64,000 nt of DNA from Candidatus Magasanikiibacteriota bacterium (GCA_963840935.1 CAWJAS010000001.1:256875-320874), one strand, 5' to 3'. Counted from the first letter of the stretch, positions 4,127-29,961 are shown. The notes: generated by a model not told the origin, from the sequence alone. Program-made: numbers and translations.

Positions 4127-7100
4127 ATGGAAAAATTTGAAAAACAATTTAAAATTCGTGCGAGCATAAAATCAATGATGATTTTTGTGTTTGTATTTGG
4201 AATTTTTGTTGTTTTTGCAAATTCGGCAAGCGCCACAAATTGGAAGCCAAATCCAAATCAATGTCCGACCACATACAACGGTCAAATTGGTAATCCGGGC
4301 GAAGTGATGTGCGGTTTGAACAGTGGAGTGGCGCATTGGTATGACATGACGACTTTAGTTGGTTTGGTACCCGCGGGTAATACAACCGTTAACACTGGTG
4401 GGGGAACATACGGTGGTTATGTGGTTGATTGCGATGCTTTTGATGCGAGCGTTCCGCGTTGCGACAACACGGGTTCTTTTTGGTGCAGTCCGGACGCTAC
4501 TTGCAACAGTGCCTACAGAAAAACAGAATGTATTGGAACAAAATGGGCTACTGATTCCGGATCTTCTAATTGCGATGTTTGTCAAGATAATAGATGGGAT
4601 TGCGACACTAATAATACTTGCGAAACCGCGGATGGGGCCAGTTGCACGGCGACTCTTGGCGGTAATAATGTTCCCGGCACAATGAATTGCGTTACCGGCG
4701 CCGGTTCATGCTCTGATTTGGGAGCTACTCTTGCCACTTGTACTTGCGTACCGGGTGTTCAATATTTTCAAACGGGCATCCAAGCCCAGTTCGCCACAAC
4801 TTCGCCTTTGCTTTGGGGCACTCAATATGGTACCGGTGATTTAATAAATATTTCCAGCAATGATTTATCAACCACCACATTCATGGTTTCTAATTCCGGC
4901 CAAGTGGGTGTCGGTTTGGCTTCTGCAATAAACACCAATGTTGCTTTTGAAGTTTCGTCCACCAATCGAGGCGTGCTTTTGCCAAGATTAACAACCACGC
5001 AGAGAAACGCGATTTTAACTCCACCGGAAAGTTTGCTTGTATATAATATTGACAATCATCAATTTGAATATTATGCCACTTCAAGCTGGCTTGCCATGGG
5101 CTCGGGAGGTGGTTCGTTTACCGAAACCGACCCGATCTGGATGACGGCAAGTGGCACTTTGACTACCGCGCATTTTGCCACCAATACTGTTTCACAATGG
5201 TCTAATGACGCCGGTTATCTTACTTCATACACCACCACTTCACCCGCCGGCATAAATGGGCAAGTGCAATTTAATGATAATGGCGCATTTGGCGCGACTA
5301 ATACTCTTGTTTGGGATAACTTACTCGGTTCCTTGTCTGTGGGTGATAATTATACTTTTCTATCAGGTTCAAGGTCTTTTGTGCAGGGCCTTTATAGTCA
5401 GGCTACCGGCACAAATTCAATTGCCATGGGGCAATACGCGCAAGCAACAAATAATTTTGCCGTAGCTATCGGCGGTTCTTCTCCGGTATCATCCGGTAAT
5501 TCTTCCATTGCTATGGGTTCTGGCGCGCACGCGTATGGTAATAGTTCAATCGCGCTCGGCAATCTTGCATCAGCGGAAAATTTATCTTCCGTCGCCATTG
5601 GTTATCAAACCAGGTCAACCGGTAATTATGCGGTCGCTATCGGTGGAAATACTAGAGCGACCGGTTTGTTCAGCGTGGCGATTGGCAATAACAGTACCTC
5701 AAGCGGAAATTCATCTTTTGTCGGCGGTTATAATAATGATTCAAGCGGTAATTATTCAGCAGTATTTGGTTCTGACAACATTAACACGGGCGGAGATTAC
5801 GCTTTTATATCCGGCGACAATAATGTAAATTCAGGTGGCCTGTATTCCGCGATTTTCGGGGCCTACAACACATCAACCGGCCAATATTCATTTATCGGCG
5901 CCGGTTTAAATAGTGTGGCGAGCGGAATTAATTCAGTTGCTTTTGGTCGAAATTTGACAGTGTCCGGTAATTATTCTTTTGGGGTTAATGCCCACGGTTC
6001 AAATTCATATACCTTATCTCAAGCTAACACAGTTGCTCTTATGGGTGGCAATGTTGGCGTGGGGACTACGACTCCGGCCTATAGGTTAACCGTTTCCGGA
6101 GATTTCGCCGTTACTGGCACAATAAGAGTGGGGAATGCTATGACCCCGGGCACTTATGGCCAACTTCTAATGTCAACCGGCACGGGAGCGGTTTGGATGA
6201 GTACCAGTTCACTTGGTTTGGGCGGGGGAGGCGTCACAGGTTCCGGCACATCAACTGAAGTCGCTTTTTGGTCCGGCACAAATTCACTTTCATCCTCAAG
6301 TTCACTTTATTGGAATAACACGAATGGCAGACTTGGTATTAACAATGCAACTCCGGAATTCGCTTTAACTATTGGAAATGACGGGGGTATTATCGCAACC
6401 GGCACAGTTGGGTCCGGCGCGACTCTTTCTACCGCTGGCGCCGGCACCCGCATGATTTGGTACCCGCGTAAAGCCGCATTCAGAGCCGGTTATGTAAATG
6501 GAACGCAGTGGAATGACGCGAACATCGGAGAATATTCCGTAGCCATGGGGAACGGTTCAAGAGCCAGCGGATATGGTGACATTGCTATTGGTACTGGTGT
6601 AGTCGCAAGCGGTGGAAATTCCGCCACGGCAATAGGCGCTCTTAATACGGCAAGCGGTGATGGGGCGTTTGCCCTTGGCCGTTCAATGACAGTATCCGGC
6701 GACTATTCTTTTGGTGTTAATGTTTCCACAACCGGTGCCACATTATCCCAAGCGAGTACCATTGCTTTAATGGGTGGCAATGTTGGTGTTGGCACAACTT
6801 CTCCATTATTCAAATTAACAATTGACGGTGGAATTTATTCCACGGGTACTTTTAATGCGGGTGAAACTTTGTCTTATTCCGGTGCTGGTACCCGCATGAT
6901 TTGGTACCCACGTAAAGCCGCGTTTAGAGCGGGTAATGTAGATAGCACACAATGGAATGATGCGAATATCGGGACTTATTCCGTTGCTTTTGGAGAAGAC
7001 ACCGAAGCGAGCGGTGACCACGGGTCAACCGCCTTCGGAACCGGTTCAATTGCGAGCGGTGATTATGGGTCCGCCGCTTTTGGCTCGTGGACAGAAGCTT

Positions 7101-10100
7101 CCGGTCAAAGCTCGGCCGCTTTTAACATAGCCACAATTGCCAGTGGTAATTATTCAACCGCTTTTGGCAACACCACTGTGGCCAGTGGCATGACGGCGAC
7201 AGCTTTTGGTAATGGTACGACCGCCAGTGGTTATATTTCCACAGTATTTGGCAATAGCATGACAGTATCCGGTGATTATTCATTTGGCGTAAATGTTGGG
7301 GCTTCAGCTTCCCCTGTGCTCTCGCAAGCAAATACTATTGCTCTTATGGGTGGGAATGTCGGCATTGGTACAACTTCGCCACAATATCGATTGACAGTCG
7401 CTGGTGATTTGGCGGTTACAGGCACAATCAGAGTGGGGGATACTATGGCTTCCGGCACTTACGGCCAGATTTTGATGTCAACCGGCACAGGAGCTACCTG
7501 GATGAGCACCAGTTCACTTGGTTTGGGCGCTGGTACTGTTACAGGTTCCGGCACATCAACCGAAATAGCTTTTTGGTCCGGCACAAATTCACTTTCATCC
7601 TCAAGTTCACTTTATTGGAATAACACAACCGGCAAGTTAGGTATAAATAATTCAAATCCTGAATTCGCTTTAACTATTGGAAACGACGGCGGTATTATCG
7701 CAACAGGAACCTATGGTAGTGGAACTATTCTTACCACAGCAGGCGCCGGCACTCGAATGATTTGGTATCCGTATGGCGCGGCTTTTAGAGCTGGCATAAT
7801 CGACGGTACTCAGTGGAACGAATTTAATATCGGACATGGTTCCGTCGCTTTTGGCGCTAACACTATTGCGAGCGGAGCCGGCTCAATGGCTGTTGGTGCA
7901 GATACAGTAGCTTCAAATGCCTCGTCTTTTGCGTCGGGTTATGGAGCTGTTGCTTCAGGTTACGTTGGTTCTTCTATCGGTTTATATACAACTTCAAGCG
8001 GACATTATGGTTCATTTTCCATAGGCGAACGAACAGTAGCAAGTGGTAATCGCGCTTTTGCTGGTGGGTATTATTCCATAGCTTCAGGCACGGCCACACT
8101 TGCTTTTGGTCAAAACGCGAATGCATTAGGTAACAATTCAGTTGCGCTTGGTCAAAATGTTACCACCACATTGTCTTCAAGTAATAATTTTGCTCTTGGC
8201 AATAATATAATAGTTAGCGGTAATTATTCATTTGGTGTGAATGTTTCGTCAACTGTCGCGACTCTCGCGCAAGCCAACACTATTGCTCTAATGGGTGGTA
8301 ATGTCGGCATCGGCACAACGAGTCCGCCGTTAAAATTAACAATAGACGCGACTGTCGGTAGTGGCGGTTCTGAAGGAATTGGAATTTTTGGCGGTAATAG
8401 CACTACTGTTGCTCTTGGAAATTATAATAGCGGGGGCACATATACCGGAGTTTTGGCATTGTATCGCTCAGATTACTGGGGGCCAACCGCGATGTTTTCT
8501 GCCGGAGGTTCCGCTTCGCTTTATGGTTTTCATATTGGTACTTCCACTATTCCATCTACTATTTCACGTTTTACTGTTGGTTCAGATTTGGAATTTGCAA
8601 TAAGCAGTGACGGGGATATTACAAGAATAAATGACGTGCCCATGTCTTGGCCGTCGTCTCAAGGGGGAGTTGGCACGATTTTACAAAATGACGGTTCGGG
8701 TAATTTGTCTTGGGAGGCGACAAGTTCACTCGGGTTAATTGATGGCGAGGGTTCCGCCGGTTTTGTTACACTTTGGAATAGCAGTACCACTTTGTCTTAT
8801 GATGGTGATGGTATGTATTGGGACGGAATGGATAATCGATTGGGTATTGGGACAACGACTCCCTTGGGGAGACTGCATATGCGTACGAATATAAGTGGAG
8901 ATGGAATTTTTTTAAGTAATGATGTAGGTAAAGTGGCTTCAAAATTGTTTCTTATTTTAGATTCCGACAGCTATCAGTCAGGTAAACTATCTCTATTACA
9001 AAATGACGTGGAAAAAGTGTCTTTAGTTGCAAAAGGCAATTCTTATTTAACCGGCGGTAATGTGGGTATTGGCACATCAACACCGGAAACAGTATTGTCT
9101 GTTGCTGTTCCGGGGAATAATGGCATTGTTTTGTATGGATCCACAAATGGCTATCAATTGGCAGCACTTGCCAGCGGAGCCGGGAATGAAACGGGTGGTC
9201 TTGTGCTTTTTACCAACAATATATCTCAACCGAGTGTTTCCATTACTGGTGGAGTTGGAGGCGCGATTACTTATTTCGGCACTTCAACCTATCGTTTTGG
9301 CATTGCCACAAGTAGTCCTTTATCAGGGTTCACTTTTGTGGTTGCCGGCACTTCATCACAGCGTTCTATTTTACCGGAAACTAATTTGACTTACACATTG
9401 GGTGATTCTTCCAAGCGTTGGAATGAGTTGTGGACCGGCACGGCAAATATTGGTACAAGCACATGGTCGCTTACCACAACCGGCGCGGACCGATTTGGAA
9501 TTTTTAGCGGTCCGAGCGGAACGGCTACGGAAACAATATCGATTTTGCAGGATTTGGGTAATGTTGGTATCAACAACATATCACCATCAAAAACTTTAGA
9601 TGTTAACGGCAGTATTAATATTCCATCAACCGACACTACCACAGATTCAGGAATAATATATATGAATAGTAGCCGTTTTATTCATTCAGTGGGCGGAACA
9701 ACGAATTTTTATGCAGGCTTAGGATCCGCAAATACAAATGCCATTTCAGATTACAATACCGGTATTGGTGGCAATGCATTGATGAATATCACATCTGGCG
9801 ATGGCGCGAATGTTGCAGTTGGTTATAACGCTGGCAGAAGCATTACCACTGGAGCATATAATGTCGGTATTGGTATAAATAATTTTTATGAAAACGGAGG
9901 CGGTATTATTGGAAACGTAGCGATTGGTCGACACACCATGTATTCCACACAAAGTAATTCCAGTACCGCCGTTGGCTACGCTGCGATGAGAAATAACACG
10001 ACCGGTGAAGGTAATGTTGCCCTAGGATATTATGGACTTTATGCCAACTCTACAGGTAATTACAATACAGCCGTTGGTTTCGAAGCTTTGGCTACAACCA

Positions 10101-12919
10101 CAAATTCAAATAATACAGCTTTGGGTTATCAAGCATTATATGGGAGTAGAAGCGGTGCGCGCAATGTTGGTGTTGGTGTCCAATCGTTATATTCTTTGAC
10201 ATCGGGCAGTGACAACACTGCTCTTGGGTATAACGCTTTATATGGAATTACAAGTGGCTCATACAATGTTGGAGTCGGACCTTATTCTCTTTCAAGTATT
10301 TCCGGTACAACTATTACCAATAATACGGCAATAGGACAGCATGTTATGCGCGATGCGGTTGGCACAACCATGTATTATAATGTGGCAATTGGCTATGAAG
10401 CATTAAGATATTTATCAGTTTCCACGGCAACAGATAATGTGGCTATCGGCAGAGGCTCGATGAGTAATGCCTCCGGCACCCCAACAATAAATTACAATAT
10501 TGCTATCGGTCGAGAATCATTATTGAATACGGAAACTAGCGATAGTGTTGCTATTGGTGCATATGCTTTGCGTTATAATACTACAGGTGATGGCAATGTC
10601 GCGATTGGTTATGAAGCTTTGGAATTGAACGACACAGGCTCATATAATACAGCACTTGGTTATCGCGCTTTGGCTACTAATGATATCGCCATTGGTGGTA
10701 GTAATGTGGCTGTGGGTTATTCTGCGCTTGAAGACAGCTCAAACGGAGTGAACAATACTGCCTTGGGGTCAAGTGCGTTGTCAAATTTAACTTCGGGCAG
10801 TTACAATGTAGCCATTGGTAGCCAGTCTGGAAATGATGTGATATTTAGCACCGAGAATGGCAATACATTGATTGGCTACGCGACAGATATTCTTAATGGC
10901 GTCGAATATTCGACAGCTTTAGGCTATAGTGCAGTTGCAAGTACAAGTAATTCAATTTATTTGGGTCAATTAGGTAATGGTAATGGCAGGGTATTTTTTC
11001 CGGGAATATATGGCAGTGTGCCTGCAGCGACAAATTATGTTTGTATAAATCCAACAACCCGAGAAGTTGCCTATCAATCAACTGCCTGTGGTAGCTCCGA
11101 TGATAATTTAAAAATAAATGAAGAGAGTATCGCAGACGAGATTGATGTTTTAAATGCAGTCAAACAATTACGTGGCGTATTTTTTAATTGGGATTTATCT
11201 AATCCGGAAATGATGGGTGCGCCGTCAGATCGGCAGATTGGCGTAATAGCGCAAGAAGTTTTACCAATTTTACCAGAAGTAGTTGAATATAGCGAAGATT
11301 GGGGCTACTATTCGGTTGACTATCCCAAACTCACTGCTTTCCTCATCGAAGTCGCCAAAGCCCAGCAGAATATCCTCGACCCCATCACCGAGTCCATATT
11401 CATTAACACCACCACTCTAAACATGGCCTTTGGCTCATCTTCCACCCCATACAACCTGACCACCTATGGCAATCTGTCCTTCATATTACCTTCAGACTCC
11501 ACCTCAACTCACAAAATATCTTTTTCCAACACCGTTGATTTTGAATCTTCCGTCTCATCCACCCCCGACTCCCGCGCTTTCATCTTTAACGCTCTTAACT
11601 TTGATACCACATCAACCGACAAATACATATTATCTCTCCGTTCCAACAACAATCCGGTCTTTAGCGTCTCATCAAACGGCGATGTTCATTCCTCCGGCAA
11701 CATGTATGCCGCTTCCGCCGTCCTCGGCACATCCACCAACCCGGGTGACCTGGCAGAAAAAGTAGATATAAACCCCACGGAAACCGTGGAAGCAGGGGAT
11801 GTGATGATGGTTGACCCGGCCTCACCCGACAGATACCAAAAATCAAATCAAGCATACGAACCGACTGTGGCCGGCGTTATCTCCACGAACCCAACCATCA
11901 TTGTCGGCAACGGCAAAACCGACCAAACCGCTCCTCTTGCCATGGTTGGAAGGGTACCGGTCAAATTCAGTGAAGAAAACGGCGCAATACAAAGAGGCGA
12001 CCTCCTTGTATCGGCGAGCACTCCTGGCTATGCCATGAAATATGACCCGATTCTCGACAACTCCAGAAAAGTGGTCGGCATTATCGGTATTGCTCTTGAT
12101 AATTCCATGGAATCAACCAATGGTAAGATAATGACCCTTATCAGAACCGGTTGGGTCTACAACAAAACCCAAGCTGTCTCCAATCTTGAACAACAAGTTT
12201 ACTATGTCGCTTCAAGTGCCGGTGTTGACCTATCGGTTGACCCTGAACTCATGAATATTGAAACTACGAGCGAAGGATCTATCACCTACAACAGTGATAG
12301 CAACCTTAGTCTCAACAATTTCTCCATCACCAATGTCAAATCAATAATATCAACCAACAACAAATGGACCATAGATGAATACGGCCTCTTAATCACCAAA
12401 GTCATCACCGCTGAAGGAACTGAAAAGAATATCTACGGCATGACTTCTGAATCGGCGGAGATTACGCTGTCCGGCTCCGCCGAACTCATAAACGGTGAAG
12501 CAATAATTAACTTTGCCACCGATACACAGTGGTTGATTGATGAGACGCAAGAAATAAAAGTTATCCCAGCCTTAACTTCCGGTGATTGCAATGGAATATT
12601 TGTCAGCGAAAAATCATCTGCCGGCTTCACAATAAAGGAATTAAATAGTGGAACAAGTGCATCAACATTTGATTGGCTTGTGATTGCAAAAAGAAAAATA
12701 AATATTCAGGATGAAATAATTTATGAACCCACACCAACTCCGCCTATTGATGATACACCAACTACAACACCTTTGGTTGATTCTCCCACCACCACACCTC
12801 CAATTGATACATCTATCTCAACTCCACCAACAAGTACTCCATCCATAGACCCACCGACAACCACGCCTTCTGTAGAAGCCTCGTCTTCGCCAGATGAAAC
12901 AGCTATGGATGAATCATAA
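4127..12919 (+). CDS. Giant secreted fibre/adhesin-like protein of 2930 aa
   Basis: Uninterrupted 8.8-kb ORF. It contains a signal peptide, a Cys-rich cap, the RGVLLPRLTTTQRNA...EYY module, Hep_Hag/YadA-head-like repeats, large internal repeats carrying GAGTRMIWYPRKAAFRAG, an S74-type chaperone domain, a shared C-terminal module and a Pro/Thr-rich tail. Confidence 0.8.
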   Translation: MEKFEKQFKIRASIKSMMIFVFVFGIFVVFANSASATNWKPNPNQCPTTYNGQIGNPGEVMCGLNSGVAHWYDMTTLVGLVPAGNTTVNTGGGTYGGYVVDCDAFDASVPRCDNTGSFWCSPDATCNSAYRKTECIGTKWATDSGSSNCDVCQDNRWDCDTNNTCETADGASCTATLGGNNVPGTMNCVTGAGSCSDLGATLATCTCVPGVQYFQTGIQAQFATTSPLLWGTQYGTGDLINISSNDLSTTTFMVSNSGQVGVGLASAINTNVAFEVSSTNRGVLLPRLTTTQRNAILTPPESLLVYNIDNHQFEYYATSSWLAMGSGGGSFTETDPIWMTASGTLTTAHFATNTVSQWSNDAGYLTSYTTTSPAGINGQVQFNDNGAFGATNTLVWDNLLGSLSVGDNYTFLSGSRSFVQGLYSQATGTNSIAMGQYAQATNNFAVAIGGSSPVSSGNSSIAMGSGAHAYGNSSIALGNLASAENLSSVAIGYQTRSTGNYAVAIGGNTRATGLFSVAIGNNSTSSGNSSFVGGYNNDSSGNYSAVFGSDNINTGGDYAFISGDNNVNSGGLYSAIFGAYNTSTGQYSFIGAGLNSVASGINSVAFGRNLTVSGNYSFGVNAHGSNSYTLSQANTVALMGGNVGVGTTTPAYRLTVSGDFAVTGTIRVGNAMTPGTYGQLLMSTGTGAVWMSTSSLGLGGGGVTGSGTSTEVAFWSGTNSLSSSSSLYWNNTNGRLGINNATPEFALTIGNDGGIIATGTVGSGATLSTAGAGTRMIWYPRKAAFRAGYVNGTQWNDANIGEYSVAMGNGSRASGYGDIAIGTGVVASGGNSATAIGALNTASGDGAFALGRSMTVSGDYSFGVNVSTTGATLSQASTIALMGGNVGVGTTSPLFKLTIDGGIYSTGTFNAGETLSYSGAGTRMIWYPRKAAFRAGNVDSTQWNDANIGTYSVAFGEDTEASGDHGSTAFGTGSIASGDYGSAAFGSWTEASGQSSAAFNIATIASGNYSTAFGNTTVASGMTATAFGNGTTASGYISTVFGNSMTVSGDYSFGVNVGASASPVLSQANTIALMGGNVGIGTTSPQYRLTVAGDLAVTGTIRVGDTMASGTYGQILMSTGTGATWMSTSSLGLGAGTVTGSGTSTEIAFWSGTNSLSSSSSLYWNNTTGKLGINNSNPEFALTIGNDGGIIATGTYGSGTILTTAGAGTRMIWYPYGAAFRAGIIDGTQWNEFNIGHGSVAFGANTIASGAGSMAVGADTVASNASSFASGYGAVASGYVGSSIGLYTTSSGHYGSFSIGERTVASGNRAFAGGYYSIASGTATLAFGQNANALGNNSVALGQNVTTTLSSSNNFALGNNIIVSGNYSFGVNVSSTVATLAQANTIALMGGNVGIGTTSPPLKLTIDATVGSGGSEGIGIFGGNSTTVALGNYNSGGTYTGVLALYRSDYWGPTAMFSAGGSASLYGFHIGTSTIPSTISRFTVGSDLEFAISSDGDITRINDVPMSWPSSQGGVGTILQNDGSGNLSWEATSSLGLIDGEGSAGFVTLWNSSTTLSYDGDGMYWDGMDNRLGIGTTTPLGRLHMRTNISGDGIFLSNDVGKVASKLFLILDSDSYQSGKLSLLQNDVEKVSLVAKGNSYLTGGNVGIGTSTPETVLSVAVPGNNGIVLYGSTNGYQLAALASGAGNETGGLVLFTNNISQPSVSITGGVGGAITYFGTSTYRFGIATSSPLSGFTFVVAGTSSQRSILPETNLTYTLGDSSKRWNELWTGTANIGTSTWSLTTTGADRFGIFSGPSGTATETISILQDLGNVGINNISPSKTLDVNGSINIPSTDTTTDSGIIYMNSSRFIHSVGGTTNFYAGLGSANTNAISDYNTGIGGNALMNITSGDGANVAVGYNAGRSITTGAYNVGIGINNFYENGGGIIGNVAIGRHTMYSTQSNSSTAVGYAAMRNNTTGEGNVALGYYGLYANSTGNYNTAVGFEALATTTNSNNTALGYQALYGSRSGARNVGVGVQSLYSLTSGSDNTALGYNALYGITSGSYNVGVGPYSLSSISGTTITNNTAIGQHVMRDAVGTTMYYNVAIGYEALRYLSVSTATDNVAIGRGSMSNASGTPTINYNIAIGRESLLNTETSDSVAIGAYALRYNTTGDGNVAIGYEALELNDTGSYNTALGYRALATNDIAIGGSNVAVGYSALEDSSNGVNNTALGSSALSNLTSGSYNVAIGSQSGNDVIFSTENGNTLIGYATDILNGVEYSTALGYSAVASTSNSIYLGQLGNGNGRVFFPGIYGSVPAATNYVCINPTTREVAYQSTACGSSDDNLKINEESIADEIDVLNAVKQLRGVFFNWDLSNPEMMGAPSDRQIGVIAQEVLPILPEVVEYSEDWGYYSVDYPKLTAFLIEVAKAQQNILDPITESIFINTTTLNMAFGSSSTPYNLTTYGNLSFILPSDSTSTHKISFSNTVDFESSVSSTPDSRAFIFNALNFDTTSTDKYILSLRSNNNPVFSVSSNGDVHSSGNMYAASAVLGTSTNPGDLAEKVDINPTETVEAGDVMMVDPASPDRYQKSNQAYEPTVAGVISTNPTIIVGNGKTDQTAPLAMVGRVPVKFSEENGAIQRGDLLVSASTPGYAMKYDPILDNSRKVVGIIGIALDNSMESTNGKIMTLIRTGWVYNKTQAVSNLEQQVYYVASSAGVDLSVDPELMNIETTSEGSITYNSDSNLSLNNFSITNVKSIISTNNKWTIDEYGLLITKVITAEGTEKNIYGMTSESAEITLSGSAELINGEAIINFATDTQWLIDETQEIKVIPALTSGDCNGIFVSEKSSAGFTIKELNSGTSASTFDWLVIAKRKINIQDEIIYEPTPTPPIDDTPTTTPLVDSPTTTPPIDTSISTPPTSTPSIDPPTTTPSVEASSSPDETAMDES
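5400..5975 (+). other. Hep_Hag / YadA-head-like repeat region inside giant gene 1
   Basis: Repeated ..SIAMG..A.A.G..SVAIG..S.A.G.. units (e.g. NSSIALGNLASAENLSSVAIGYQTRSTGNYAVAIGGNTRATGLFSVAIG). Confidence 0.55.
5965..6555 (+). repeat. Copy 1 of a ~590-bp internal segmental repeat of giant gene 1
   Basis: The peptide YSFGVN...ALMGGNVGVGTT...GDFAVTGTIRVG...GAGTRMIWYPRKAAFRAG recurs at 7272-7860 with high identity. A shorter version lies at about 6700-6990. Confidence 0.6.
7272..7860 (+). repeat. Copy 2 of the ~590-bp internal segmental repeat of giant gene 1
   Basis: See copy 1. The peptide here is YSFGVNVGASASPVLSQANTIALMGGNVGIGTTSPQYRLTVAGDLAVTGTIRVG...GAGTRMIWYPYGAAFRAG. Confidence 0.6.
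11093..11380 (+). other. S74-type intramolecular-chaperone autoproteolysis domain, internal to giant gene 1
   Basis: The peptide SSDDNLKINEESIADEIDVLNAVKQLRGVFFNWDL...RQIGVIAQEVLPILPEVV...YYSVDYPKLTAFLIEVAKAQQ matches the SD(K/N)RLK...GLIAQEV..V.PE.V...Y..L..L.EA.K signature of the tail-spike/endosialidase C-terminal chaperone domain (Peptidase_S74). Confidence 0.6.
11546..12475 (+). repeat. About 930-bp block nearly identical to 25875-26795 in giant gene 2
   Basis: Direct nucleotide comparison shows only scattered mismatches across this block, whereas the flanking regions of the two genes are divergent. Confidence 0.75.
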
Positions 12920-13121: not shown

Positions 13122-13637
13122 ATGTCGTTCAAGTCGATTGTTTTCTGTGTGGTGTTCACGCTCGCCATTCTTGGATGCCAGTCGAGCGCCAACTTTGAGG
13201 CGGGAGACGGAGATGATGGTTTCGAGTCGTACGTCTTCAACGCCCTGTACTTCGATATCGAGAATTCGCTGGTTTGGGAACTGGTTCCGTCGCACGAAAG
13301 CAGTTACAGCACTGCCATTTGGGCGGAAGCAGAGAAACACTGCGAGGATCTTCGGGTCGTAGGGGAGGAGGGCATTTACGAAGATTGGCGCCTTCCCACC
13401 ATCGATGAACTGCGCACACTCGTGGTCGGTTGCGACGAACCTTCGTGTCTGATCGAGGCTGGTACCGGTCCGAACGGCTGCTATTGGCCGGATGCTTTTT
13501 CCGGCGTTTGTGCCCGTTATTGGTCGTTGAGTCGGTGCGGTGAAGATAGCCGGTCGGCAGTCACATTTTCTTTTGCCAGAACGGATTGTTGGCCAGAAGA
13601 TCAGCCGGCAATCGTCCGCTGCGTCCGCGACCTCTAA
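13122..13637 (+). CDS. Short lipoprotein (171 aa) with a DUF1566/Lcl-C-terminal-like (C-type-lectin-like) domain
   Basis: Signal peptide with a lipobox (LAILGCQS). Motifs WRLPTIDELRTL, GCYWP and YWS are present, and the protein ends RCVRDL. The gene is GC-rich relative to its flanks. Confidence 0.75.
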   Translation: MSFKSIVFCVVFTLAILGCQSSANFEAGDGDDGFESYVFNALYFDIENSLVWELVPSHESSYSTAIWAEAEKHCEDLRVVGEEGIYEDWRLPTIDELRTLVVGCDEPSCLIEAGTGPNGCYWPDAFSGVCARYWSLSRCGEDSRSAVTFSFARTDCWPEDQPAIVRCVRDL

Positions 13638-13681
13638 CCATCCCGCCTCACACCCCGCTCTTTCCGCTCTTTCAACTCCCG

Positions 13682-13711
13682 CCCGCCGATATTCCATCGG
13701 CGGGTTTTTTT
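13682..13711 (+). terminator. Rho-independent terminator (cccgccgat-attcc-atcggcggg + T7)
   Basis: Perfect 9-bp stem followed by a T-run. The identical element recurs at 15405-15428. Confidence 0.7.
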
Positions 13712-13929
13712 ATCGTTAACTATTGACTTAATTCGCTAAAAATGGTATTTTAATATATTAAAAAATTCGTATTTTTATTATTCTAAGCGAAGTAAAAAAT
13801 ATAATTTTTTTTCTGCGCCTAGAATGATAATGATAGCTCGTTGAAAATATTAAAAAAACCGACACAATACTGTGCGTCCCCAAGAGGCGTTCGTGGGGGA
13901 TAAAGCATTCCCGAAAAAAGGAGTAGTTC

Positions 13930-15354: not shown

Positions 15355-15404
15355 CCAATCCCGCCCCACCCCCGCTCTTTCCGCTCTTTCAACTCCCGCC
15401 CGCC

Positions 15405-15428
15405 GATATTCCATCGGCGGGTTTTTTT
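15405..15428 (+). terminator. Rho-independent terminator, a duplicate of the 13682 element
   Basis: The same hairpin and T-run. About 110 bp of the 3' end plus UTR is near-identical between the two genes. Confidence 0.7.
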
Positions 15429-15553
15429 ATCCCTAAAAAGCATCTTAATAAATTGTAATCAAATTGTGGATAACTTATAAATAATATCGAAAATAACACA
15501 AAAATGTGATATAATAATAATGTAAAAAACAAGCCGGCCAATAAAAAGGCAAC

Positions 15554-17434: not shown

Positions 17435-18240
17435 ATATTCAGTTTTGGTTCTTATGCCGAATATAATGCGGTTTTTGGCACAAATAATCAATTGTATAAT
17501 ACTGCAAAGTATTCTTAGTTACCGGTGGTTTTAATAATGTCACTTCAACATATTCCAGCGCGTTTGGCCAATCTCATATTATTAAAGGAGATTATTCACA
17601 TCTTTTTGGTTATAGCATTGACAGCCAACAGCGAATTTATTCTTTTGGTGTTAATGTTAGTTCAACGGCAGTAACTATGAACACCCCCAATACCATCGCC
17701 CTTATGGGTGGGAATGTCGGTATTGGCACAACATCGCCGGCATCATTATTAACAATTGGTAGTGGTGGTCAGTTTCAAGTTAATTCGACCGGCAATTTAA
17801 CGAAAATTAACAATGTTCAATACTCATGGCCTTCCGCCAACGGAGCTTCCGGTACGCTATTTACCACCGATGCTTCGGGTAATTTATCTTGGGTTGCCAC
17901 AACTTCTCTTGGATTGGCAACCGGCAATGTCACCGGTTCGGGTTCGACCGGCATGGTTACTTTTTGGACCGACACCAATGTGATATCAGGTTCATCTTCA
18001 TTTATTTGGGATAATACCAATCGCTCTTTGTCGGCTGGCGGAGTCGGAAGCATGTTATTTGTCGGCACGAAAAACTCTTTTGTATTTTCGGATAACAGTA
18101 GTATACAAATTAACCCGGATTCTTTTATTGGCGGTGGTTATTCAAATGTAGTAGTTGCAACATCGTCTTTTGTTGGAGGCGGTTATTATAACGAAATTCG
18201 TGATGGGGGAAACCTTCATCATTTATTGGTGGGGGCATGA
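17432..18240 (+). pseudogene. Disrupted junction region of giant gene 2 with three lesions
   Basis: An in-frame TAA lies at 17432-17434, and the repeat-consistent translation continues after it (IFSFGSYAEYNAVFGTNNQLYNTAKYS). A TAG/frame change occurs near 17515-17521. A +/-1 shift occurs in a G5 run near 18200-18210 (GGYYNEIRDGG / KPSSFIGGGMSNVIAG). Confidence 0.6.
17677..18240 (+). CDS. Internal fragment (187 aa) of giant gene 2
   Basis: Repeat-type sequence (NTIALMGGNVGIGTTSP...) continuous in content with the upstream and downstream segments. Overlaps the next ORF by 4 nt in another frame. Confidence 0.5.
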   Translation: MNTPNTIALMGGNVGIGTTSPASLLTIGSGGQFQVNSTGNLTKINNVQYSWPSANGASGTLFTTDASGNLSWVATTSLGLATGNVTGSGSTGMVTFWTDTNVISGSSSFIWDNTNRSLSAGGVGSMLFVGTKNSFVFSDNSSIQINPDSFIGGGYSNVVVATSSFVGGGYYNEIRDGGNLHHLLVGA

Positions 18241-21200
18241 GCAATGTTATTGCCGGGCAACATTCAGGTGTGGTCGCAGGCACTTATAATATTGTTACTT
18301 CTTCGAATTCATTTATCGGAGGCGGTTCAAATAATCAAATAACAAATTCCGCATCGCGCTCGTTTATCGGTGGCGGTCAATATAATTTCGCGGATGGTTT
18401 AAATTCTTTTATTGGGGGCTACGCCAACACCACCACTGGTAATAATGCGACTGCCTTCGGGTATCAGATGCAAGTTGATGGTAATTACTCTTTTGGCATA
18501 AATGTTTCCTCGACTAATCCGGCCACAATTACAAATAATAATACTATAGCTTTAATGGGTGGGAATGTTGGAGTGGGCACCACAACGCCAGAAACAAAAT
18601 TAACCATTGATTCAACTGTAGGCGCTGGTTTATTTGGTGGAATATCTTTATCTGGCGGGGGTGCTCCAACTGCGATTTTAGGTCATGCCAATATAGTTAG
18701 TAATCATTCGGGTGTTTTAGCATTATATAACAATACCCCAGCCGAATTATTACCACCAGTATTTATTCCCGCATGGACTAAATCGGCAATATTACACGGC
18801 TTGAATATTGGTACGACATCATATTCGGGAACTGGGTTGTTAAATGTCGGTCTTACCCAACAATTCCGGGTTGATAACGATGGTGACATTGCAAGGATTA
18901 AAAATATTTCTTATGATTGGCCAGACTCTCAAGGTGCCGTTGGTACTATCTTACAAAATAACGGGGCAGGAGCATTATATTGGACTGCGACATCATCGCT
19001 CGGTTTTGTTGACACAGACACCACCACATCCCCGGCCGGTTTTGACGGGTATATTCAATTTAATGAAGACGGTGAATTCGCGGCGAGTCAGAATTTATAT
19101 TGGGCCACATCAACTGGACGATTGGGTGTTGGTGACGCATCGATAGCCGGAAGTCCGACCAATAAATTATCAATTGGCGCGACACCCAGCAGTGGTTCCG
19201 CTGACGGTATGTCTATATACGGTGATGACTTATTAACTGCCTTTGTCGGTAATTACAATTCCAGTGGTGTTTATACCGGTCGTATCGGACTTTATCGCGC
19301 CGAAGACGCTGATACTGAATTAAAAACATTCATCAGTGCCAGTGCTTCATATTTTGTCGGCGGTAATGTCGGAATCGGTGTTTCAACGACAATCCCGTCT
19401 TTGTTAACCGTTGGTTCAAATAGCGGTTTCCAAGTCAATTCTTCCGGCAATTTAACAAAAATTAACAATGTCACATATTCCTGGCCAGGATCACAAGGCG
19501 CGGCTAGCACAATTTTACAAAATGACGGTTCGGGCACATTAACTTGGGTCAATACCTCCACCCTCGGTTTCGCCACCTCTTCGCACACCCATGCCACGCT
19601 CTCACAAGGTACCGGTATCGCCGCGTTTTCATACAACGGTTCATCGGCCGCCACTGTCGGTCTGGCCACTTCGGGTGTTACTGCCGGCACTTATGGCACG
19701 GTTTCAGCAGTGCCTATCTTAGTAGTTGATACCTATGGTCGTATTACTTCGGCTTCCACATCATCAATTGCCATTTCTGCCAGTCAAATTACATCCGGGA
19801 TTCTTCCTATCGCTCGTGGTGGCACTAATTCTTCAACTATCGGCGCTGCCGGTTCGGTCCCATATTCCGATGCCACTTCATACCGTTTTACAGCCGTTGG
19901 CACCTCCGGTCAAATTCTACGCTCCAACGGGGCCGGAGCCCCAACTTGGGTTTCCACTTCAACTCTCGGCATTACTGTCACTGAAACCGATCCTGTTTTT
20001 GACGCCTTGCCGGCGGCCAAAGGTGATATATTTACCGCCACGGCCAATGATACACCATCAATTTTGTCTGTCGGTACGAATGGAAAAATATTAACAGCTT
20101 CTTCTTCCGCCACTAACGGCATAGATTGGATGACGACATCTTCTCTCATCGGCACTCTTGGCACCATGGCTTATCAAAATGCTAATAACGTAAATATTTC
20201 GGGGGGAACGATTACCAGTATAGGGGATGTTACAATTAACGAAGGTCAGCTTTATGTGCATGACAATTTATATATTACAGACGGTGATAGCGATACGGTG
20301 TCCGGCATATATTTGGGTGCCACCGAAGTCGGTCAATATTTTATAACCTCAGCCGGTACTGCCGGTCAACTTTGGTCGTCTGACGGAGATGGGCGCGGAA
20401 CATGGGTGGCGACATCTTCACTTGGTATTGCTAGCGCCGGTGGTTGGACTGATGATGGCATGGTAGTGCGATTGACCACCATTATAGACAATGTCGGCAT
20501 CGGCACAACCACACCGGCGGCTAAACTGCATGTAAATATCACAACTGGCGACGGTATCATATTAGGCTCAGGAAGCAGTGGAAGCGCAGTAGCTAAATTG
20601 TTTGCCAATGGTGACTATGGCGATGTTGGTAATATATCGTTGCATTATGGCTCAAGCCAAAAAGCTTTATTATCGGCCGACGGTGTTTCCTATCTTAATG
20701 GCGGGAATGTAGGCATTGGTACCACTTCACCGGCGGCTAAACTGCATGTAAATATCACAACTGGCGACGGTATCATATTAGGCTCAGGAAGCAGTGGAAG
20801 CGCAGTAGCTAAATTGTTTGCCAATGGTGACTATGGCGATGTTGGTAATATATCGTTGCATTATGGCTCAAGCCAAAAAGCTTTATTATCGGCCGACGGT
20901 GTTTCCTATCTTAATGGCGGGAATGTAGGCATTGGTACCACTTCACCGGCGGCTAAACTGCATGTAAATATCACAACTGGCGACGGTATCATATTAGGCT
21001 CAGGAAGCAGTGGAAGCGCAGTAGCTAAATTGTTTGCCAATGGTGACTATGGCGATGTTGGTAATATATCGTTGCATTATGGCTCAAGCCAAAAAGCTTT
21101 ATTATCGGCCGACGGTGTTTCCTATCTTAATGGCGGGAATGTCGGCATTGGTACCACTTCACCGTCATACAGCTTATCTGTTGCTGGTCATATGGCAGTT

Positions 21201-24200
21201 ACTGGAACGTTCAGAGTGGGGAATTCTCAAGATGCCGGTGCTTCAGGATATATTTTGCGATCAAATGGTTCATCGGTCGCCCCGACTTGGGTGGCCACAT
21301 CTTCGCTTGGCTTAATGAGTACTGCTCTTGCTTCCGCATACATTTGGGTAGGCAATGCTTCCGGCGTAGCAACTGCTGTTTCTATGAGCAGTGACGCTAC
21401 GATATCCAACACAGGTGCTCTAACTATTTCAGCCAATGCGGTTGGGTCAAATGAAATAATTAACAATTCAATTGCGCCGGTTGACATGGCTTCAAGTAGC
21501 GCCCCATCAGCAGTTGGAAATGTTTTAACCTATAACGGAAGTAACTTTAAATGGATTGCCACATCTTCTCTGGGAATCGCCTCTGCCGGTGGTTGGACTG
21601 ATGATGGTACGGTGGTCAGATTAACCGCAATTACAGATAGTGTCGGCATCGGCACAACCACTCCGCCATTTAAATTGGCGGTTCAAGCAGGATATAATGA
21701 TGGAATTACTTTATATAGCCCAACAGCGGTTGGGACTATTGGGATGGTTAGTATTCTTGGTGGTGGCGGTGGTCCGGCCGGAGTTTTGTTAGCAATGGAT
21801 ACTGGAGTAATAAAAACTCGTATTAGCGCCGACGCCAGCACGGATTCATATTTTGATGCTGGTGATGTCGGTATAGGTACAACTACCCCATCAAACAAAT
21901 TGCAGGTAAATGTCACTAGCAATAATGATGGCATATTATTGAGTGGCAATAGCACACTTGCTGCAAAATTATATTATGATGGTTCGAGTGGCCATATCGG
22001 ATATATGTCTTTATATGGCGGTGGAGCGGAAACCGTTAAATTATCAGCATCTGGCTATTCATATATAAATGGCGGTAATGTCGGCATCGGCACAACCACT
22101 CCGCCATTTAAATTGGCGGTTCAAGCAGGATATAATGATGGAATTACTTTATATAGCCCAACAGCGGTTGGGACTATTGGGATGGTTAGTATTCTTGGTG
22201 GTGGCGGTGGTCCGGCCGGAGTTTTGTTAGCAATGGATACTGGAGTAACAAAAATTAGAATAAGCGCTGACGCTAGTACTGATTCATATTTTAACGCTGG
22301 TGATGTCGGCATCGGCACAACAACCCCCGCCGGAAAACTGCATGTATTATCATCCGCAAGCGACGGCATATTATTAAGCGGAACAGATGATAACAAAATT
22401 GCGGCTAAACTTCATCACACTTACATGAGCGGAGCAACCGCGGGTTTGTTGTCCATGTACGATAATACAGTCCAAAAAATATATTTGAATGCCGGCGGTA
22501 TTTCGTATTTGAACGGAGGCAATGTGGGTATTGGCACTACTTCTCCTGCCTATAAATTAACTGTTGCCGGCGATTTACACGTTACAGGTACTTTAAGAGT
22601 AGGAAATAATTTTGATGCAGGTATTACCGGATACCTGTTGATGTCAAATGGCTCTTCTCTTGCACCTAGCTGGACATCAACAGCAACTTTATTTTCCTCT
22701 GCCGGTGGTTGGACTGACGATGGTACTATAGTAAGGTTGACTACATTGGGTGATAAAGTTGGAATTAATACATACAGCGCTTTTGCGCCCCTCCATGTTG
22801 GAGATACATCAAATGATGGCACTATTGTCGCAAAAGGATTACTAGGTTCTGGATACTCATTAAATTTAGATCAAGATCAACCATATTTTGTATGGAGTTC
22901 CAAGCGAGCAGCGTTAAGAGCTGGTATATCAGGGTCATCTTTAGCTTGGGATGATGCCTATGTTGGAAATTATTCTGTTGCCATGGGTTATTATTCGGCG
23001 GCAACAGGCACAGCATCAGTTGCAATCGGTGGAGCTAATATTGCCACAGCAGATTATGCAACAGCGCTTGGTTACAATATGACTGTTTCCGGCGCGCGTT
23101 CATTCGGTGTAAATGTTTCAACTACAGCCGCCACCCTCTCGCAGGCTGATACTATCGCCTTGATGGGTGGCAATGTTGGGGTTGGTAAAGTTAACCCAGA
23201 AAGAAAGCTCGATGTTAGCGGAGTGGCGCGAATTCAAAATTTTGCTTCTTTGAGCAATGTACAATATGATGCAGTCAATATTAATTATACGATGTTGGGC
23301 AACAACATCTACATGAATGAATATTCCGGTGTTCCTTATTTTGCTTATTTAAATACTGACAGCGGTGGAGCGACAGGTTATTCCGGTATGTTATTGGCTT
23401 CCGCTGGTTTTAATTTTTACGCCGATGTTTCTTCAACTGTTAAAGATGGTGTTTTGAGTGACCCAAATAAATTAATGGATTTATTATATGATGGGCAACT
23501 TATTTCATATGGCACTTATAGCGTAGGCGATTCTTTAACTGCGTCAGGCGCCGGCACCCGTATGATTTGGTTCCCAAAAAAATCCGCTTTTAGAGCGGGC
23601 ACAGCAGAAGGCACAGAATATAACGACGCGAATATTGGCAATTATTCATTTGCAGGAGGTTCTGGTAATCTTGCAAGCGGTGAATCTGCTACTGCCTTTG
23701 GAAGCAGAAATACTGCAAGTGGACAGTGGTCTTTTATCGCTGGCTCGCAAAATACCGCGTCTAATACGGCGTCCATCGCTTTGGGTCGCTCAAATAATGC
23801 CACTGGAATTTATTCTTTTACCGCTGGTTATGGTAACACTGCAAGCGGAATTTATTCCGTGGCTATTGGTAGAAGTTCAGTTGCGAGCGAAGAACACACT
23901 ACGGCTTTGGGCTATAATGCAACAGCAAGCGGTGAATATGCGACTGCTTTGGGTTATCAGAGTACCGCAAGTTTTTATGGTGCTTCTGCGTTTGGTTTTA
24001 GAAGTGTTGCTAGTAGCTTTTACTCTCTGGCTTTAGGTAACACTGTAACGTCAAGCGGATCAAACGCCGTTGCTATGGGTAGCTTTATTACTGTTTCTGG
24101 TTCTAGCTCGCTTGGTATTAATGTGTCTTCTACTGTGCCCGCAACACTTTCTCAAAATCACACTATCGCCTTAATGGGTGGGAATGTCGGTGTTGGCACA

Positions 24201-27200
24201 GTGACACCAAGTGAACAGTTGGCTGTTTGGGGTGATATGCGTGTCGCGACTACCACAGGAACTGCGCCCGCATTATATGTTGACGTATCGGCCAATGCGA
24301 TTGGTGTTCGAATGATAGCGCCACAAGAAGCTTTGCATGTTGAAGGCAATATTAGAATTCCTGGAACAGGTGCTTCAGACGGATATATTAAAATGGATGC
24401 TAATCGATATATCCATAGTTATGGGGGCACAACAAACTTTTTTGCCGGTGTTAATGCCGGTGGGCTGTCAATGACCGGTGATTACAACACAGGTGTTGGA
24501 GCTAGTTCATTAAATAATATTACATCCGGTCAAAACAATGTAGCTTTGGGTTACTACGCCTCACGAGATTTGCAAACCGGTTCAGATAATGTTGCGGTTG
24601 GAGTAAATGCGCTTTTTAATGCTACGGGTTATAGTGCCAATGTCGCCGTTGGTAAAGATGCTATGGCGGAAACTACTGCGAATTCAAGCACCGCAGTTGG
24701 TTATGAGGCGCTCAGTCGTAATACCAGTGGCGAAGGCTTGGTCGCGGTTGGTTATCAAGCTCTTACAACCAATTCCACAGGTAATTACAATTCGGCTCTT
24801 GGTTATCAAGCGCTTTATTCCAATACAACCGGTTTATATAACACGGCCTTTGGCTCTCAAACTCTTTATGATAATGTTAGCGCCCATGCCAATACCGCTT
24901 TGGGTTGGGGTGCGCTGGCGAACACAACGAACGCATCAAATACTGCGGTTGGTTTTGGAGCTTTAATTACTGATACAACTGGTTATAGTAATACTGCCGT
25001 GGGTTTGTACGCTCTAAGATATGTTTCTTCGGGCAGTTATAACGTTGCTATTGGGCTTGATGCGGGCGATAATTCTGTTTTTAATACCGAAAGTTATAAT
25101 ACTTTGATTGGAGCAAGAGCGGATGTTTCTGCTGATGCCATATCAAATTCAACCGCAATTGGCTATGACGCTGTGGTTGGTTCTAGCAACAGGGTCGTTC
25201 TTGGAAATGGCGATGTTACTTCTGTTTATATGTCCGATGATGGTGGAGCAAGTGTCTACTTCACGCCGGCTAGCACTCTTTATACTACTGCGTTATGTTG
25301 GGATAATTCCGGCCCGTCGAGTATATATGATTGTAACGGTTCGGCGACCGACTACATGGAATACTACGCGGTTGACAACGATGTTGAATCCGGGGATTTG
25401 GTTGTAATCGGAGATACTTATGTTTCAACAACCGAAGGTTTTACAATAGCAAAATTAGAAAAAGCGACAGGCCCATACGACCCGAAATTATTAGGTGTTA
25501 TTTCAATAAAAGAATGGGCTGGCGATTTCAATTCAATCGGTCAAAATAGTATTTACGAATCAGACAATCCGCACGTGCTTGCTCTTTCAGGTCGTATTCC
25601 CGTAAAGGTTACCACAGATAATGGTCCTATTTATAAAGGCGACAAGCTTACTTCATCTGATCGCCCTGGTTATGCCATGAAAGCCACCGAAGACGGTCCG
25701 ACTATTGGTATTGCTTTGGCAGATTTTACAGGTTCGGCCACAGGAACGGTTATGGTATTTATTGATCTTGGGTGGAATAATACAATTTATCGCGGATTAA
25801 CAATAAATGAAAGCGACTCGGAAATAACATTCAAAACACCAACTTTGGCTTTCACAACCACCACATATTTTACCTCTTCCGTCTCATCCACCCCCGACTC
25901 CCGCGCTTTCATCTTTAACGCTCTTAACTTTGATACCACATCAACCGACAAATACATATTATCTCTCCGTTCTAACAACAACCCGGTCTTCTCTGTCTCA
26001 TCAAACGGCGATGTTCATTCCTCCGGCAACATGTACGCCGCTTCGGCTGTCCTCGGTACTTCCACCAACCCGGGTGACTTGGCAGAAAAGGTAGACATAA
26101 ACCCCTCGGAAACCGTGGAAGCAGGGGATGTGATGATGGTTGACCCGGCATCACCCGACAGATACCAAAAATCAAATCAAGCATACGAACCGACTGTGGC
26201 CGGCGTTATCTCCACGAACCCAACCATCATTGTCGGCAACGGCAAAACCGACCAAACCGCTCCTCTTGCCATGGTCGGCAGGGTACCGGTCAAATTCAGT
26301 GAAGAAAATGGCGCAATACAAAGAGGTGACCTCCTTGTTTCCGCGAGTACCCCGGGCTATGCCATGAAATATGACCCGATTCTCGACAACTCCAGAAAAG
26401 TGGTCGGCATCATCGGTATTGCTCTTGATAATTCCATGGAATCAACCAATGGCAAAGTAATGACTCTCATCAGAACCGGTTGGGTCTACAACAAAACCCA
26501 AGCCGTCTCCAACCTTGAACAACAAGTTTACTATGTTGCTTCAAGCGCCGGTGTTGACCTATCGGTTGACCCTGAACTCATGAATATTGAAACTACTAGT
26601 GAAGGCTCTATCACCTACAACAGCGATAGCAACCTTAGTCTCAACAATTTCTCCATCACCAATGTCAAATCAATAATATCAACCAACAATAAATGGACCA
26701 TAGACGAGAACGGCATATTAATTTCTAAAATCATTACCGCTGAAGGCGCTGAAAAGAATATCTATGGCATGACTTCAGAATCTGCAGAGATTACGCTATC
26801 GGGAACCGGAACTTTGCAAATGGGTGAAATATTTATTTCTTTTGCGACCGATACAAAATCAATTATTGATGAATTAGAACCGATTAAAGTGAGTGTCACC
26901 TTAACTTCCATAGACGCAAAAGGAATCGCGGTTATAGAAAAATCCAATGAAGGATTTAAAGTTAAGGAATTGGATAATGGGACATCAAACGCCACATTTG
27001 ATTGGATTGTGATTGCCAAACGGCGTGCAATAATTAACGAATCAAGCAGTGAACCTGAAACTATTGATACTAAATCATCATCCGGTTCGCCGGTTGATGA
27101 GAGTTCTGTTGATGAGGAATTAACTCAAGCAGGAGAGGAAGACGAAACGACGGACTCGTCTTCTTCTCCTGCCGGTGATTCTTTCGAGGAACCGTTGGCT

Positions 27201-28153: not shown

Positions 28154-28228
28154 TCGACTCACCCCCTCATATTCATGAGGGAAAAATACCTGCCTCAAAC
28201 CCTGCTCTTTAATCAAACCGTTCATTTA

Positions 28229-28267
28229 CCCGCCATGTCGCATGACCTCTGGCGGGTCTTTTTTTTA
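28229..28267 (+). terminator. Rho-independent terminator (cccgcca...tggcggg + T-run), duplicated at 29925
   Basis: Hairpin followed by TCTTTTTTTT. About 85 bp of 3' UTR is identical between the 27509 and 28377 genes. Confidence 0.65.
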
Positions 28268-29849: not shown

Positions 29850-29924
29850 TACGCTCCACCGTCCTTCATCACGAAGGTAAATACCTGCCTCAAACCCTGC
29901 TCTTTAATCAAACCGTTCATTTAC

Positions 29925-29961
29925 CCGCCATGTCGCATGACCTCTGGCGGGTCTTTTTTTT
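29925..29961 (+). terminator. Rho-independent terminator, a duplicate of the 28229 element
   Basis: Identical hairpin and T-run. Confidence 0.65.

Follow-up and report, generated by a model that had tools for sequence, protein, structure and literature searches.

Gene conversion between two giant fibre genes of a Candidatus Magasanikiibacteriota bacterium, in a block that probably encodes a phi29 gp12-like folding and self-cleavage module

The window analysed here is a 64,000-nucleotide (nt) stretch from a Candidatus Magasanikiibacteriota bacterium (GCA_963840935.1 CAWJAS010000001.1:256875-320874), within which all positions are counted. It carries two giant genes, gene 1 (4127..12919; 2930 amino acids, aa) and gene 2 (18237..27299; 3020 aa as called), and both, with the parts of them described below, are on the + strand. 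Near their 3' ends the two genes share a block of DNA that is far more alike than its surroundings. We think it likely that these are old paralogues whose block was homogenised by gene conversion, and that the block encodes a folding and self-cleavage module akin to Peptidase G2, not a receptor-binding tip.

A single long blastn match joins the genes (11538-12691 against 25867-27020, 88% identity over 1158 nt, ungapped, at an offset of 14329), and all other matches between them are at most 124 nt long and 68-89% identical, representing short repeat similarity. Codon-level comparison places the core homogenised block at 11552..12379 in gene 1 (codons 2476-2751) and at 25881..26708 in gene 2 (codons 2549-2824). 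These cores of 276 codons are 94.9% identical in nucleotides, with 274/276 amino acids the same. Identity in 60-nt windows is 0.15-0.5 before 11552, which is chance level, 0.88-1.0 within the block, 0.85 at 12392-12451, and 0.60-0.73 from there to 12691, after which it falls to ~0.3 (again chance level). The 42 nucleotide differences in the core comprise 38 synonymous (Sd) and 4 nonsynonymous (Nd) changes, for a synonymous divergence (dS) of 0.23, a nonsynonymous divergence (dN) of 0.006 and a dN/dS of ~0.03. Third codon positions hold 38 of the 45 differing bases across 11538-12379, and one serine codon has switched completely between the copies (AGC to TCT). No patchy sub-tracts were evident within the block; a rough calculation by hand shows that its longest stretches free of differences (92 and 125 nt) could arise by chance.

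The flanks behave differently on the two sides. Upstream of the block there is no homology between the genes, and beyond 12697 their tails are unalignable. In between, the downstream flank (12380-12697) is still homologous, with 68% nucleotide identity, 37/106 amino acid differences, Sd 44, Nd 59, dS 1.26 and dN 0.29. The proportion of synonymous sites that differ (pS) is 38/192.5 in the block versus 44/72.3 in this flank, and the dS estimates for the downstream segment (0.78-2.7) are at least three to five times that of the block. An initial annotation had reported a near-identical block, with only scattered substitutions, between genes that are otherwise clearly diverged. The repeat is real, far beyond chance, and the quoted peptide is found in the translation; the substitutions are indeed scattered, but there are 42 of them, and at 94.9% nucleotide identity "near-identical" is an overstatement. 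Its start at 11546 was right, whereas the end it gave, 12475, lies ~95 nt inside the diverging zone, and the gene 2 end (26795) falls 9 nt short of register. Likewise, the flanks are diverged to the point of no homology upstream, but downstream they still share 65% of their amino acids at a dS above 1. Window identities and dS both confirm that identity in the block exceeds that of the flanks.

Several comparisons support gene conversion between diverged paralogues as the process that has kept the block alike. Neighbouring paralogous genes (474 aa and 490 aa) are only 50% identical in protein, which, taken together with the low dS of the block relative to its flank, indicates that the duplication is old and the block young. 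The groupings of the sequences also change along the gene. For gene 2, identity in the downstream domain is 77% with P0007, a protein of a second metagenome-assembled genome (MAG) described below, and 73% with L001 (a Candidatus Magasanikbacteria MAG carrying a 3217-aa giant gene), against only 65% with gene 1. Across the beta module of the block, genes 1 and 2 show 99% identity to each other and 72-84% identity to relatives. The linker that follows (aa 2678-2751) is 100% identical between genes 1 and 2 versus 24-38% in relatives (dN 0.54 to L001), and over the whole block the corresponding values are 99-100% and 24-86%. Gene 2 thus groups with the orthologues of other genomes in the flank and with gene 1 in the block, as conversion would predict.

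It is very improbable that the block is instead an ancient duplicate kept identical by extreme purifying selection alone. The preponderance of synonymous changes and the low dN/dS are what such selection would give, but it should not lower dS several-fold relative to the adjacent segment, it does not explain why a linker that evolves quickly between genomes is fully identical between the paralogues, and it leaves the disagreement between the groupings in block and flank unaccounted for. Purifying selection alone cannot account for the block, although it does explain why almost every change made after conversion is silent. As a separate source of the silent-site pattern, an overlapping gene or RNA was considered and rejected (the open reading frames, ORFs, that overlap the block are all short, and Rfam gave no match in the window). 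Because 42 differences, 38 of them synonymous, have accumulated, the homogenisation is not very recent. The initial annotation had proposed recent homogenisation of a C-terminal module; the conversion itself stands, given the dS values, the discordant groupings and the second MAG, but "recent" needs qualifying in light of the 38 synonymous changes and the AGC-to-TCT switch.

The second MAG, JBAZKA01, is also from Patescibacteria (its contigs L005, L006 and L012 are from the same sample as the Ga0265297 contigs), and it has the same two-gene layout, with an S74-type gene adjoining a gene that has two modules. The giant gene on L005 ends in an S74 domain plus the block, and the gene on L006 (3034-10836) comprises the upstream module plus the block. 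There are two distinct tails, P0008 on L006 and P0007 on L012, the latter followed by leuS as at gene 2. P0007 and P0008 have 117 identical residues and then diverge abruptly; over the first 354 nt of this stretch their DNA shows 9/354 differences, of which 8 are silent. The 5' parts of the JBAZKA01 blocks are 93.6% identical over 311 nt, with 15 of the 20 mismatches at third codon positions. The repetition of the pattern in JBAZKA01 indicates that the two-gene arrangement predates the split of the lineages and that the block has been homogenised separately in each. In both lineages the 5' limit of the tract is the point where the two genes cease to be homologous. The 3' limit varies: the linker is included in the window, and the JBAZKA01 tract stops directly after the module.

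Inside the block, the JBAZKA01 contigs break with an exact overlap of 127 nt, and a repeat able to break the assembly of a related MAG might also have been collapsed or joined chimerically in the assembly studied here. We find such an artefact scarcely credible, as the 42 differences between the two copies in the window follow a codon-aware pattern, both copies continue in frame into flanks that are not the same, and a protein identical to the 3020-aa gene 2 product is found in public data on a contig of 770,905 nt. Separately, three JBAZKA01 contigs (L005, L006, L012) end or start inside the shared block, and the public JBAZKA01 assembly is fragmented because of this repeat. Its two giant genes could be put back together by joining L005 to one tail and the second gene, on L006, to the other.

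Bacterial paralogues that evolve in concert by gene conversion are well known, for example tufA/tufB or families of surface-protein genes. As in those cases, the paralogues here are closer within a genome than orthologues are between genomes, the tract is discrete and dS is lower inside it. Unlike the tufA/tufB type, only one internal module of a 9-kb gene is involved, the 5' limit is set by a change in domain architecture, and a rise in the GC content of third codon positions (GC3) is confined to the converted copies. We envisage that ectopic homologous recombination repeatedly copied ~830 bp near the 3' ends between the two genes, and that strong purifying selection would have acted on both copies since. 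The 5' edge of the tract would be fixed where homology ends, because upstream of it lies an S74 domain in gene 1 and a diverged extra module in gene 2. The module would be a natural substrate for conversion because it is the longest well-conserved DNA common to both genes, and swapping it between the paralogues would be harmless because its job is generic and independent of the cargo fibre.

GC3 is 0.53 in the homogenised module of gene 1 (11732-12148) versus 0.38 for the whole gene, and 0.55 in that of gene 2 (26061-26477) versus 0.36 for the whole gene. The upstream, non-homogenised module of gene 2 (25341-25769) has a GC3 of 0.34. The homogenised modules of JBAZKA01 have values of 0.54-0.58 (whole genes, 0.44-0.49), and its upstream, non-homogenised module has 0.42 (whole gene, 0.45). 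Among relatives with unhomogenised modules, values for module and whole gene are 0.34 and 0.36 in L001, 0.37-0.38 and 0.33 in L002, and 0.47 and 0.48 in L004. The rise is thus seen only in homogenised copies and is absent from the non-homogenised modules and from these relatives, with the caveat that only two lineages are involved and that in gene 1 the rise starts ~125 codons before the block. It may reflect GC-biased gene conversion.

The central part of the block encodes a 136-aa module, from Asp2541 to Trp2676 in gene 1 (11747..12154; family profile E 5.7e-48) and from Asp2614 onward in gene 2 (26076..26483; same family profile), with a tandem beta-tulip fold. It is most likely a distant relative of the D4 autochaperone domain of phage phi29 gp12 (Pfam Peptidase_G2). 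An AlphaFold2 model of the block region, based on 65 homologues, has a mean predicted local distance difference test (pLDDT) score of 84.7 and consists of short strands, an all-beta domain of 136 residues (pLDDT >90), a helix and a C-terminal beta-sandwich. The top Protein Data Bank (PDB) match of the full model is 3suc, premature phi29 gp12. A model of the module only (pLDDT 92.3; predicted template modelling score, pTM, 0.87) has as its top Foldseek match the released gp12 fragment, 3gqh_A (E 2.4e-4, probability 1.00, template modelling scores 0.63/0.56), followed by 3suc and then by beta-tulip capsid decoration proteins. Sequence profiles point the same way: a profile of 34 trimmed family members (A3) finds 3gqh_A (E 6.6e-5) and 6qz9_A (E 4.1e-4) in the PDB, and hhalign of the family against gp12 gives 92% probability (E 6.3e-7, 82 columns). 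The phi29 protein itself matches Pfam Peptidase_G2, the "IMC autoproteolytic cleavage domain", over residues 643-854 (325 bits). The sole PDB match of A3 other than phi29 was the 5898-aa grappling-hook protein GhpA of Aureispira (9flp_A), another giant bacterial fibre, at a nonsignificant E of 3.5.

The module begins with a D-L-A-E motif (11747-11758 in gene 1). When the family is aligned to gp12, the first residue of the released phi29 fragment (DFAEYF), Asp692 by phi29 gene numbering, is matched by the Asp of the D-x-A-E motif, and mature gp12 ends at residue 691 (PMC6542822). The Asp and the Glu are invariant in the 34-sequence alignment, and a wider set of 352 module copies (212 proteins) retains Asp in 96%, Ala in 95% and Glu in 98% of cases. 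DLAE is found in the homogenised modules of both genes, and the upstream copy in gene 2 has DYME. The gp12 D4 domain (MEROPS G2, PF11962; 3gqh, 3suc) is a tandem beta-tulip autochaperone required for trimer assembly (bioRxiv 10.1101/216911). Our module resembles it in that fold, for which it is the top structural match, in a D-[FL]-A-E motif in register with the Ser691|Asp692 cleavage site, and in its position in the C-terminal end region of a trimeric fibrous protein (at the exact C-terminus in many family members). It differs from gp12 D4 in being 136 aa long rather than 163 aa, without the middle insertion of gp12, and in scoring below the Pfam threshold. After it come a helix, a beta-sandwich and a low-complexity tail, and before it S74 or a second module. 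Moreover, its host is cellular (giant fibre genes of Patescibacteria) and not a phage.

The repeat, the signature of conversion, the homology and fold of the module and its conserved motif are shown here; that the module may act in trimerisation, as a chaperone and in self-cleavage is what we infer. The two old tandem paralogues would encode giant, probably trimeric, surface fibre proteins, and the converted stretch would supply the last beta strands of the fibre, the 136-aa tandem beta-tulip module and a helical linker. After export, the module would seed trimer formation and folding of the fibre, starting at the C-terminal end, and would then cut the chain, via D-x-A-E, at Gly2540|Asp2541 in gene 1 and Gly2613|Asp2614 in gene 2. 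In gene 1, this would leave the strands of aa 2476-2540 (11552..11746; strands at model residues 25-47; 86% amino acid identity to L001) as the new C-terminus. The helix after the module (aa 2680-2697, 12164..12217; model residues 205-222) is, judging from the model, probably a coiled-coil segment, and it opens the fast-evolving linker that is identical between genes 1 and 2.

A number of observations weigh against this interpretation. The module is followed by 254 aa in gene 1 and 261 aa in gene 2, whereas that of phi29 is the extreme C-terminus, and the helix, the tailspike-like beta-sandwich and the low-complexity tail would all be lost upon cleavage. Most complete modules among the top matches (272/346) lie more than 100 aa from the protein end; the module is at the extreme C-terminus in 70 of the 346, and also in the distant relatives P0035, P0045 and P0057. 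A further putative cleavage site lies upstream in both genes, so the cut that would define the mature fibre is ambiguous. The Pfam threshold for PF11962 is missed, with no match for gene 1 or gene 2 even at E <=10, and similarity to the gp12 sequence is limited to the first ~80 residues of the module. Peptidase_G2 matches that fall below threshold occur in 6/34 family members (best E 4.4e-4), and the failure to pass it places the module on a branch of the family that is distant and unannotated. Capsid decoration proteins, too, have related beta-tulip domains, and these are not proteases. In phi29, the catalytic residues are reported to be Asp692 and Glu695 (Xiang and coworkers, 2009). As regards the conversion, searches of genome, metagenome and protein collections for sequences suited to breakpoint mapping returned no relative above 71% amino acid identity (closest were 64% in the protein database and 71%, L001, among genomes, with nothing closer among metagenome contigs).

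Several of these points would fit a module that stays in the mature fibre, as an uncleaved beta-tulip collar or cement that trimerises the chain and holds the distal beta-sandwich, with conversion still explaining the identity of the copies. There are more folded domains after the module, most modules of the family are internal and often in tandem, and capsid cement or decoration proteins are the next-best structural matches, with Phage_cement_2 and XM1_gp53 among the sub-threshold matches of family members. Decoration proteins of the beta-tulip type (lambda gpD type, XM1 gp53, TW1, Pam3) share the tandem beta-tulip fold and a trimer-forming role, but they are free-standing capsid proteins without the D-x-A-E motif or an attached fibre. 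We nonetheless consider a permanent collar doubtful. The D-x-A-E residues are 95-98% conserved exactly at the phi29 cleavage position, internal copies included, which is hard to explain for a purely structural strand, and the best matches in both sequence and fold are to gp12 D4 and not to the decoration proteins.

What lies on either side of the module also bears on the proposal, made in the initial annotation, that the block is a functionally constrained receptor-binding or cell-anchoring tip exchanged as a cassette. Downstream of the block is a beta-sandwich domain (gene 1, 12380..12697; gene 2, 26709..27026), the diverged segment in which gene 2 is closer to P0007 and L001 than to gene 1. 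In the model, this domain resembles the last domain of the tailspike of cyanophage Pam1 (Foldseek 7eea, E 7e-4; root-mean-square deviation 2.3 Å over 72 columns), with 26% identity in the structural match to the last ~65 residues; the sequence profile of the domain against 7eea residues 598-662 gives an E of only 0.13. The proteins end in a low-complexity tail, Pro/Thr-rich by composition in gene 1 (12698..12919), and in gene 2 acidic (27027-27299) and not alignable with that of gene 1.

In gene 1, the block is preceded by a Peptidase_S74 domain (aa 2324-2386, 11096..11284; Pfam PF13884, 38.9 bits versus a cut-off of 22, E 1.1e-9). Its Ser-x4-Lys dyad lies in SSDDNLK (aa 2323-2329), 90 aa upstream of the homogenised block and outside it. 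Where gene 1 has S74, gene 2 carries an extra G2-like module that is not homogenised (25341..25769; D-Y-M-E, with Asp2372 at 25350). The initial annotation was correct in calling this a diverged second module (family profile E 8e-35; 32% identical to the gene 1 module). Peptidase_S74 of endosialidases and phage tail fibres is, like the proposed role of our module, a C-terminal, self-cleaving trimerisation chaperone that is portable between fibres, but its fold and catalytic residues are unrelated. Given the domains upstream and downstream of the block, the whole 3' end appears to be built like the end of a phage tailspike or fibre.

A tip could be argued from the signal peptide at the N-terminus of the fibre, which makes the C-terminal end probably distal, from the ~65 aa of the block upstream of the putative cut, which would become the C-terminal end of the mature fibre, and from the tailspike-like and lectin-like folds among the matches of the full model. 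Even so, a receptor-binding or anchoring role for the block is unlikely. Its conserved core matches an autochaperone (one that in gp12 is cleaved off after assembly) and not a binding domain, and the same module is found on thousands of unrelated fibre proteins across phyla. No recognised binding domain was found in the block by Pfam, NCBIfam or PDB searches, and the C-termini of genes 1 and 2 have no transmembrane segment, hydrophobic anchor or sorting motif. The tailspike-like distal domain, moreover, is diverged and outside the homogenised core, and in both genes the block is downstream of another putative self-cleavage module. We therefore prefer a converted folding and self-cleavage module to the tip of the initial annotation.

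The family to which the module belongs is large. A profile search of 1.84 billion cluster representatives gave 33,521 proteins at E <=1e-3, of which 11,871 were at E <=1e-30; the family would thus number at least 33,521 clusters at 50% identity. Many of the best 150 matches are 1,000-5,766 aa long with 2-6 modules each, and gene 2 itself was among the proteins returned (P0064, 100% identical). Searches with the block as a single sequence were far less productive: phmmer gave 0 matches in the PDB, NCBIfam gave noise only, and Pfam gave nothing for the block. In PHROGs there was a weak head-scaffolding match only, for gene 2. No match to the block was found by tblastn against 50,697 phage genomes, nor any relative in a scan of IMG/VR. 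A broader proposal, in which the GC3 rise is the footprint of GC-biased gene conversion and the module represents a huge, unannotated cellular branch of the peptidase G2 autochaperone superfamily whose serial self-cleavage would split giant fibres into several pieces, is a tentative one that we hold to be rather unlikely.

The protein encoded by gene 1 starts with a signal peptide (MEKFEKQFKIRASIKSMMIFVFVFGIFVVFANSASA), followed in order by YadA_head repeats (Pfam, E 2.6e-33), Peptidase_S74, the shared block, the beta-sandwich and the Pro/Thr-rich tail. YadA_head repeats are also found in gene 2, and because both proteins have them, both are probably trimeric fibres. As called, gene 2 does not have a signal peptide of its own; the sole candidate for it sits in an upstream ORF (15554-17434, ~625 aa). 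Gene 2 probably extends across a frameshift to a true 5' end farther upstream, at 17677 or 15554. The in-frame codons just upstream of the annotated ATG (18213-18236) read PSSFIGGG, extending an SFIGGG repeat, and this ATG is probably internal to the real reading frame. The ORF at 17677-18240 terminates in a different frame right after a run of GGGGGAAA (18205-18212), and in the L001 orthologue both parts of gene 2 are fused in the one 3217-aa ORF. A sequencing error that shifts the frame by one base could account for the break, as could a recent pseudogene or a phase switch at the homopolymer.

Genes with an Lcl_C domain come after each giant gene, and leuS and comEC lie downstream of the pair, in the same order as after the giant gene of L001. 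Synteny with the gene 2 locus, leuS downstream included, is seen in L001 and L012. The best relatives are all from Patescibacteria, and no phage genes were seen around the two genes.

Other repeats were observed in the window. Directly upstream of gene 1, a 624-aa ORF (2246-4120) is 45% identical to gene 1 residues 10-328 (4127-5110), and a 345-aa ORF (1205-2242) has a 50% match to the C-terminus of the 624-aa ORF, so that these two and gene 1 make up a cluster of partial paralogues of the N-terminal part of the fibre. Within gene 2, three tandem repeats of 216 nt (72 aa; 20490-21164) are 97-98% identical and represent a second site of homogenisation or expansion in that gene. An 83-nt, terminator-like repeat, 100% identical between its copies (28184-28266 and 29879-29961), follows each of two Lcl_C-domain genes, and a 118-nt repeat with 86% identity (13615-13732 and 15332-15449) follows both Lcl_C genes downstream of gene 1. 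These repeats behind Lcl_C genes are further traces of local duplication or conversion. A diversity-generating retroelement, considered given the neighbouring Lcl_C genes, was rejected (the repeats are intergenic and terminator-like, with no template/variable pairs). Finally, leuS (30018-32585) contains three in-frame palindromic repeats of ~84 nt (30725-30808, 31169-31252 and 32048-32131), each contributing ~28 aa (VIARSEA[PT]KQSHGIA...PR[ND]DK). In the L001 orthologue of leuS, two of the repeat sites hold another short element (IPAQAGIQ type) and the third is empty. The leuS repeats look like in-frame insertions of Rickettsia palindromic elements.

Both the process (gene conversion) and the type of module are of known kinds. 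The process acting on the module is ordinary, and the domain is very common yet unannotated; the value of the case lies in the re-annotation, in concerted evolution that is replicated, and in a hint of biased conversion. The repetition of conversion in a second lineage, together with the local GC3 rise, makes this a small and clean case in which to test for biased gene conversion in bacteria. For the fibres themselves, the part of these giant surface genes that is homogenised and most conserved is probably not the business end but a disposable module for folding and cleavage. The family of this domain is very large, is often found on proteins of 1,000-5,700 aa and is missed by current Pfam and NCBIfam models; annotating it would show the likely cut sites in the giant fibres of uncultured bacteria and hence the mature, exposed tip.

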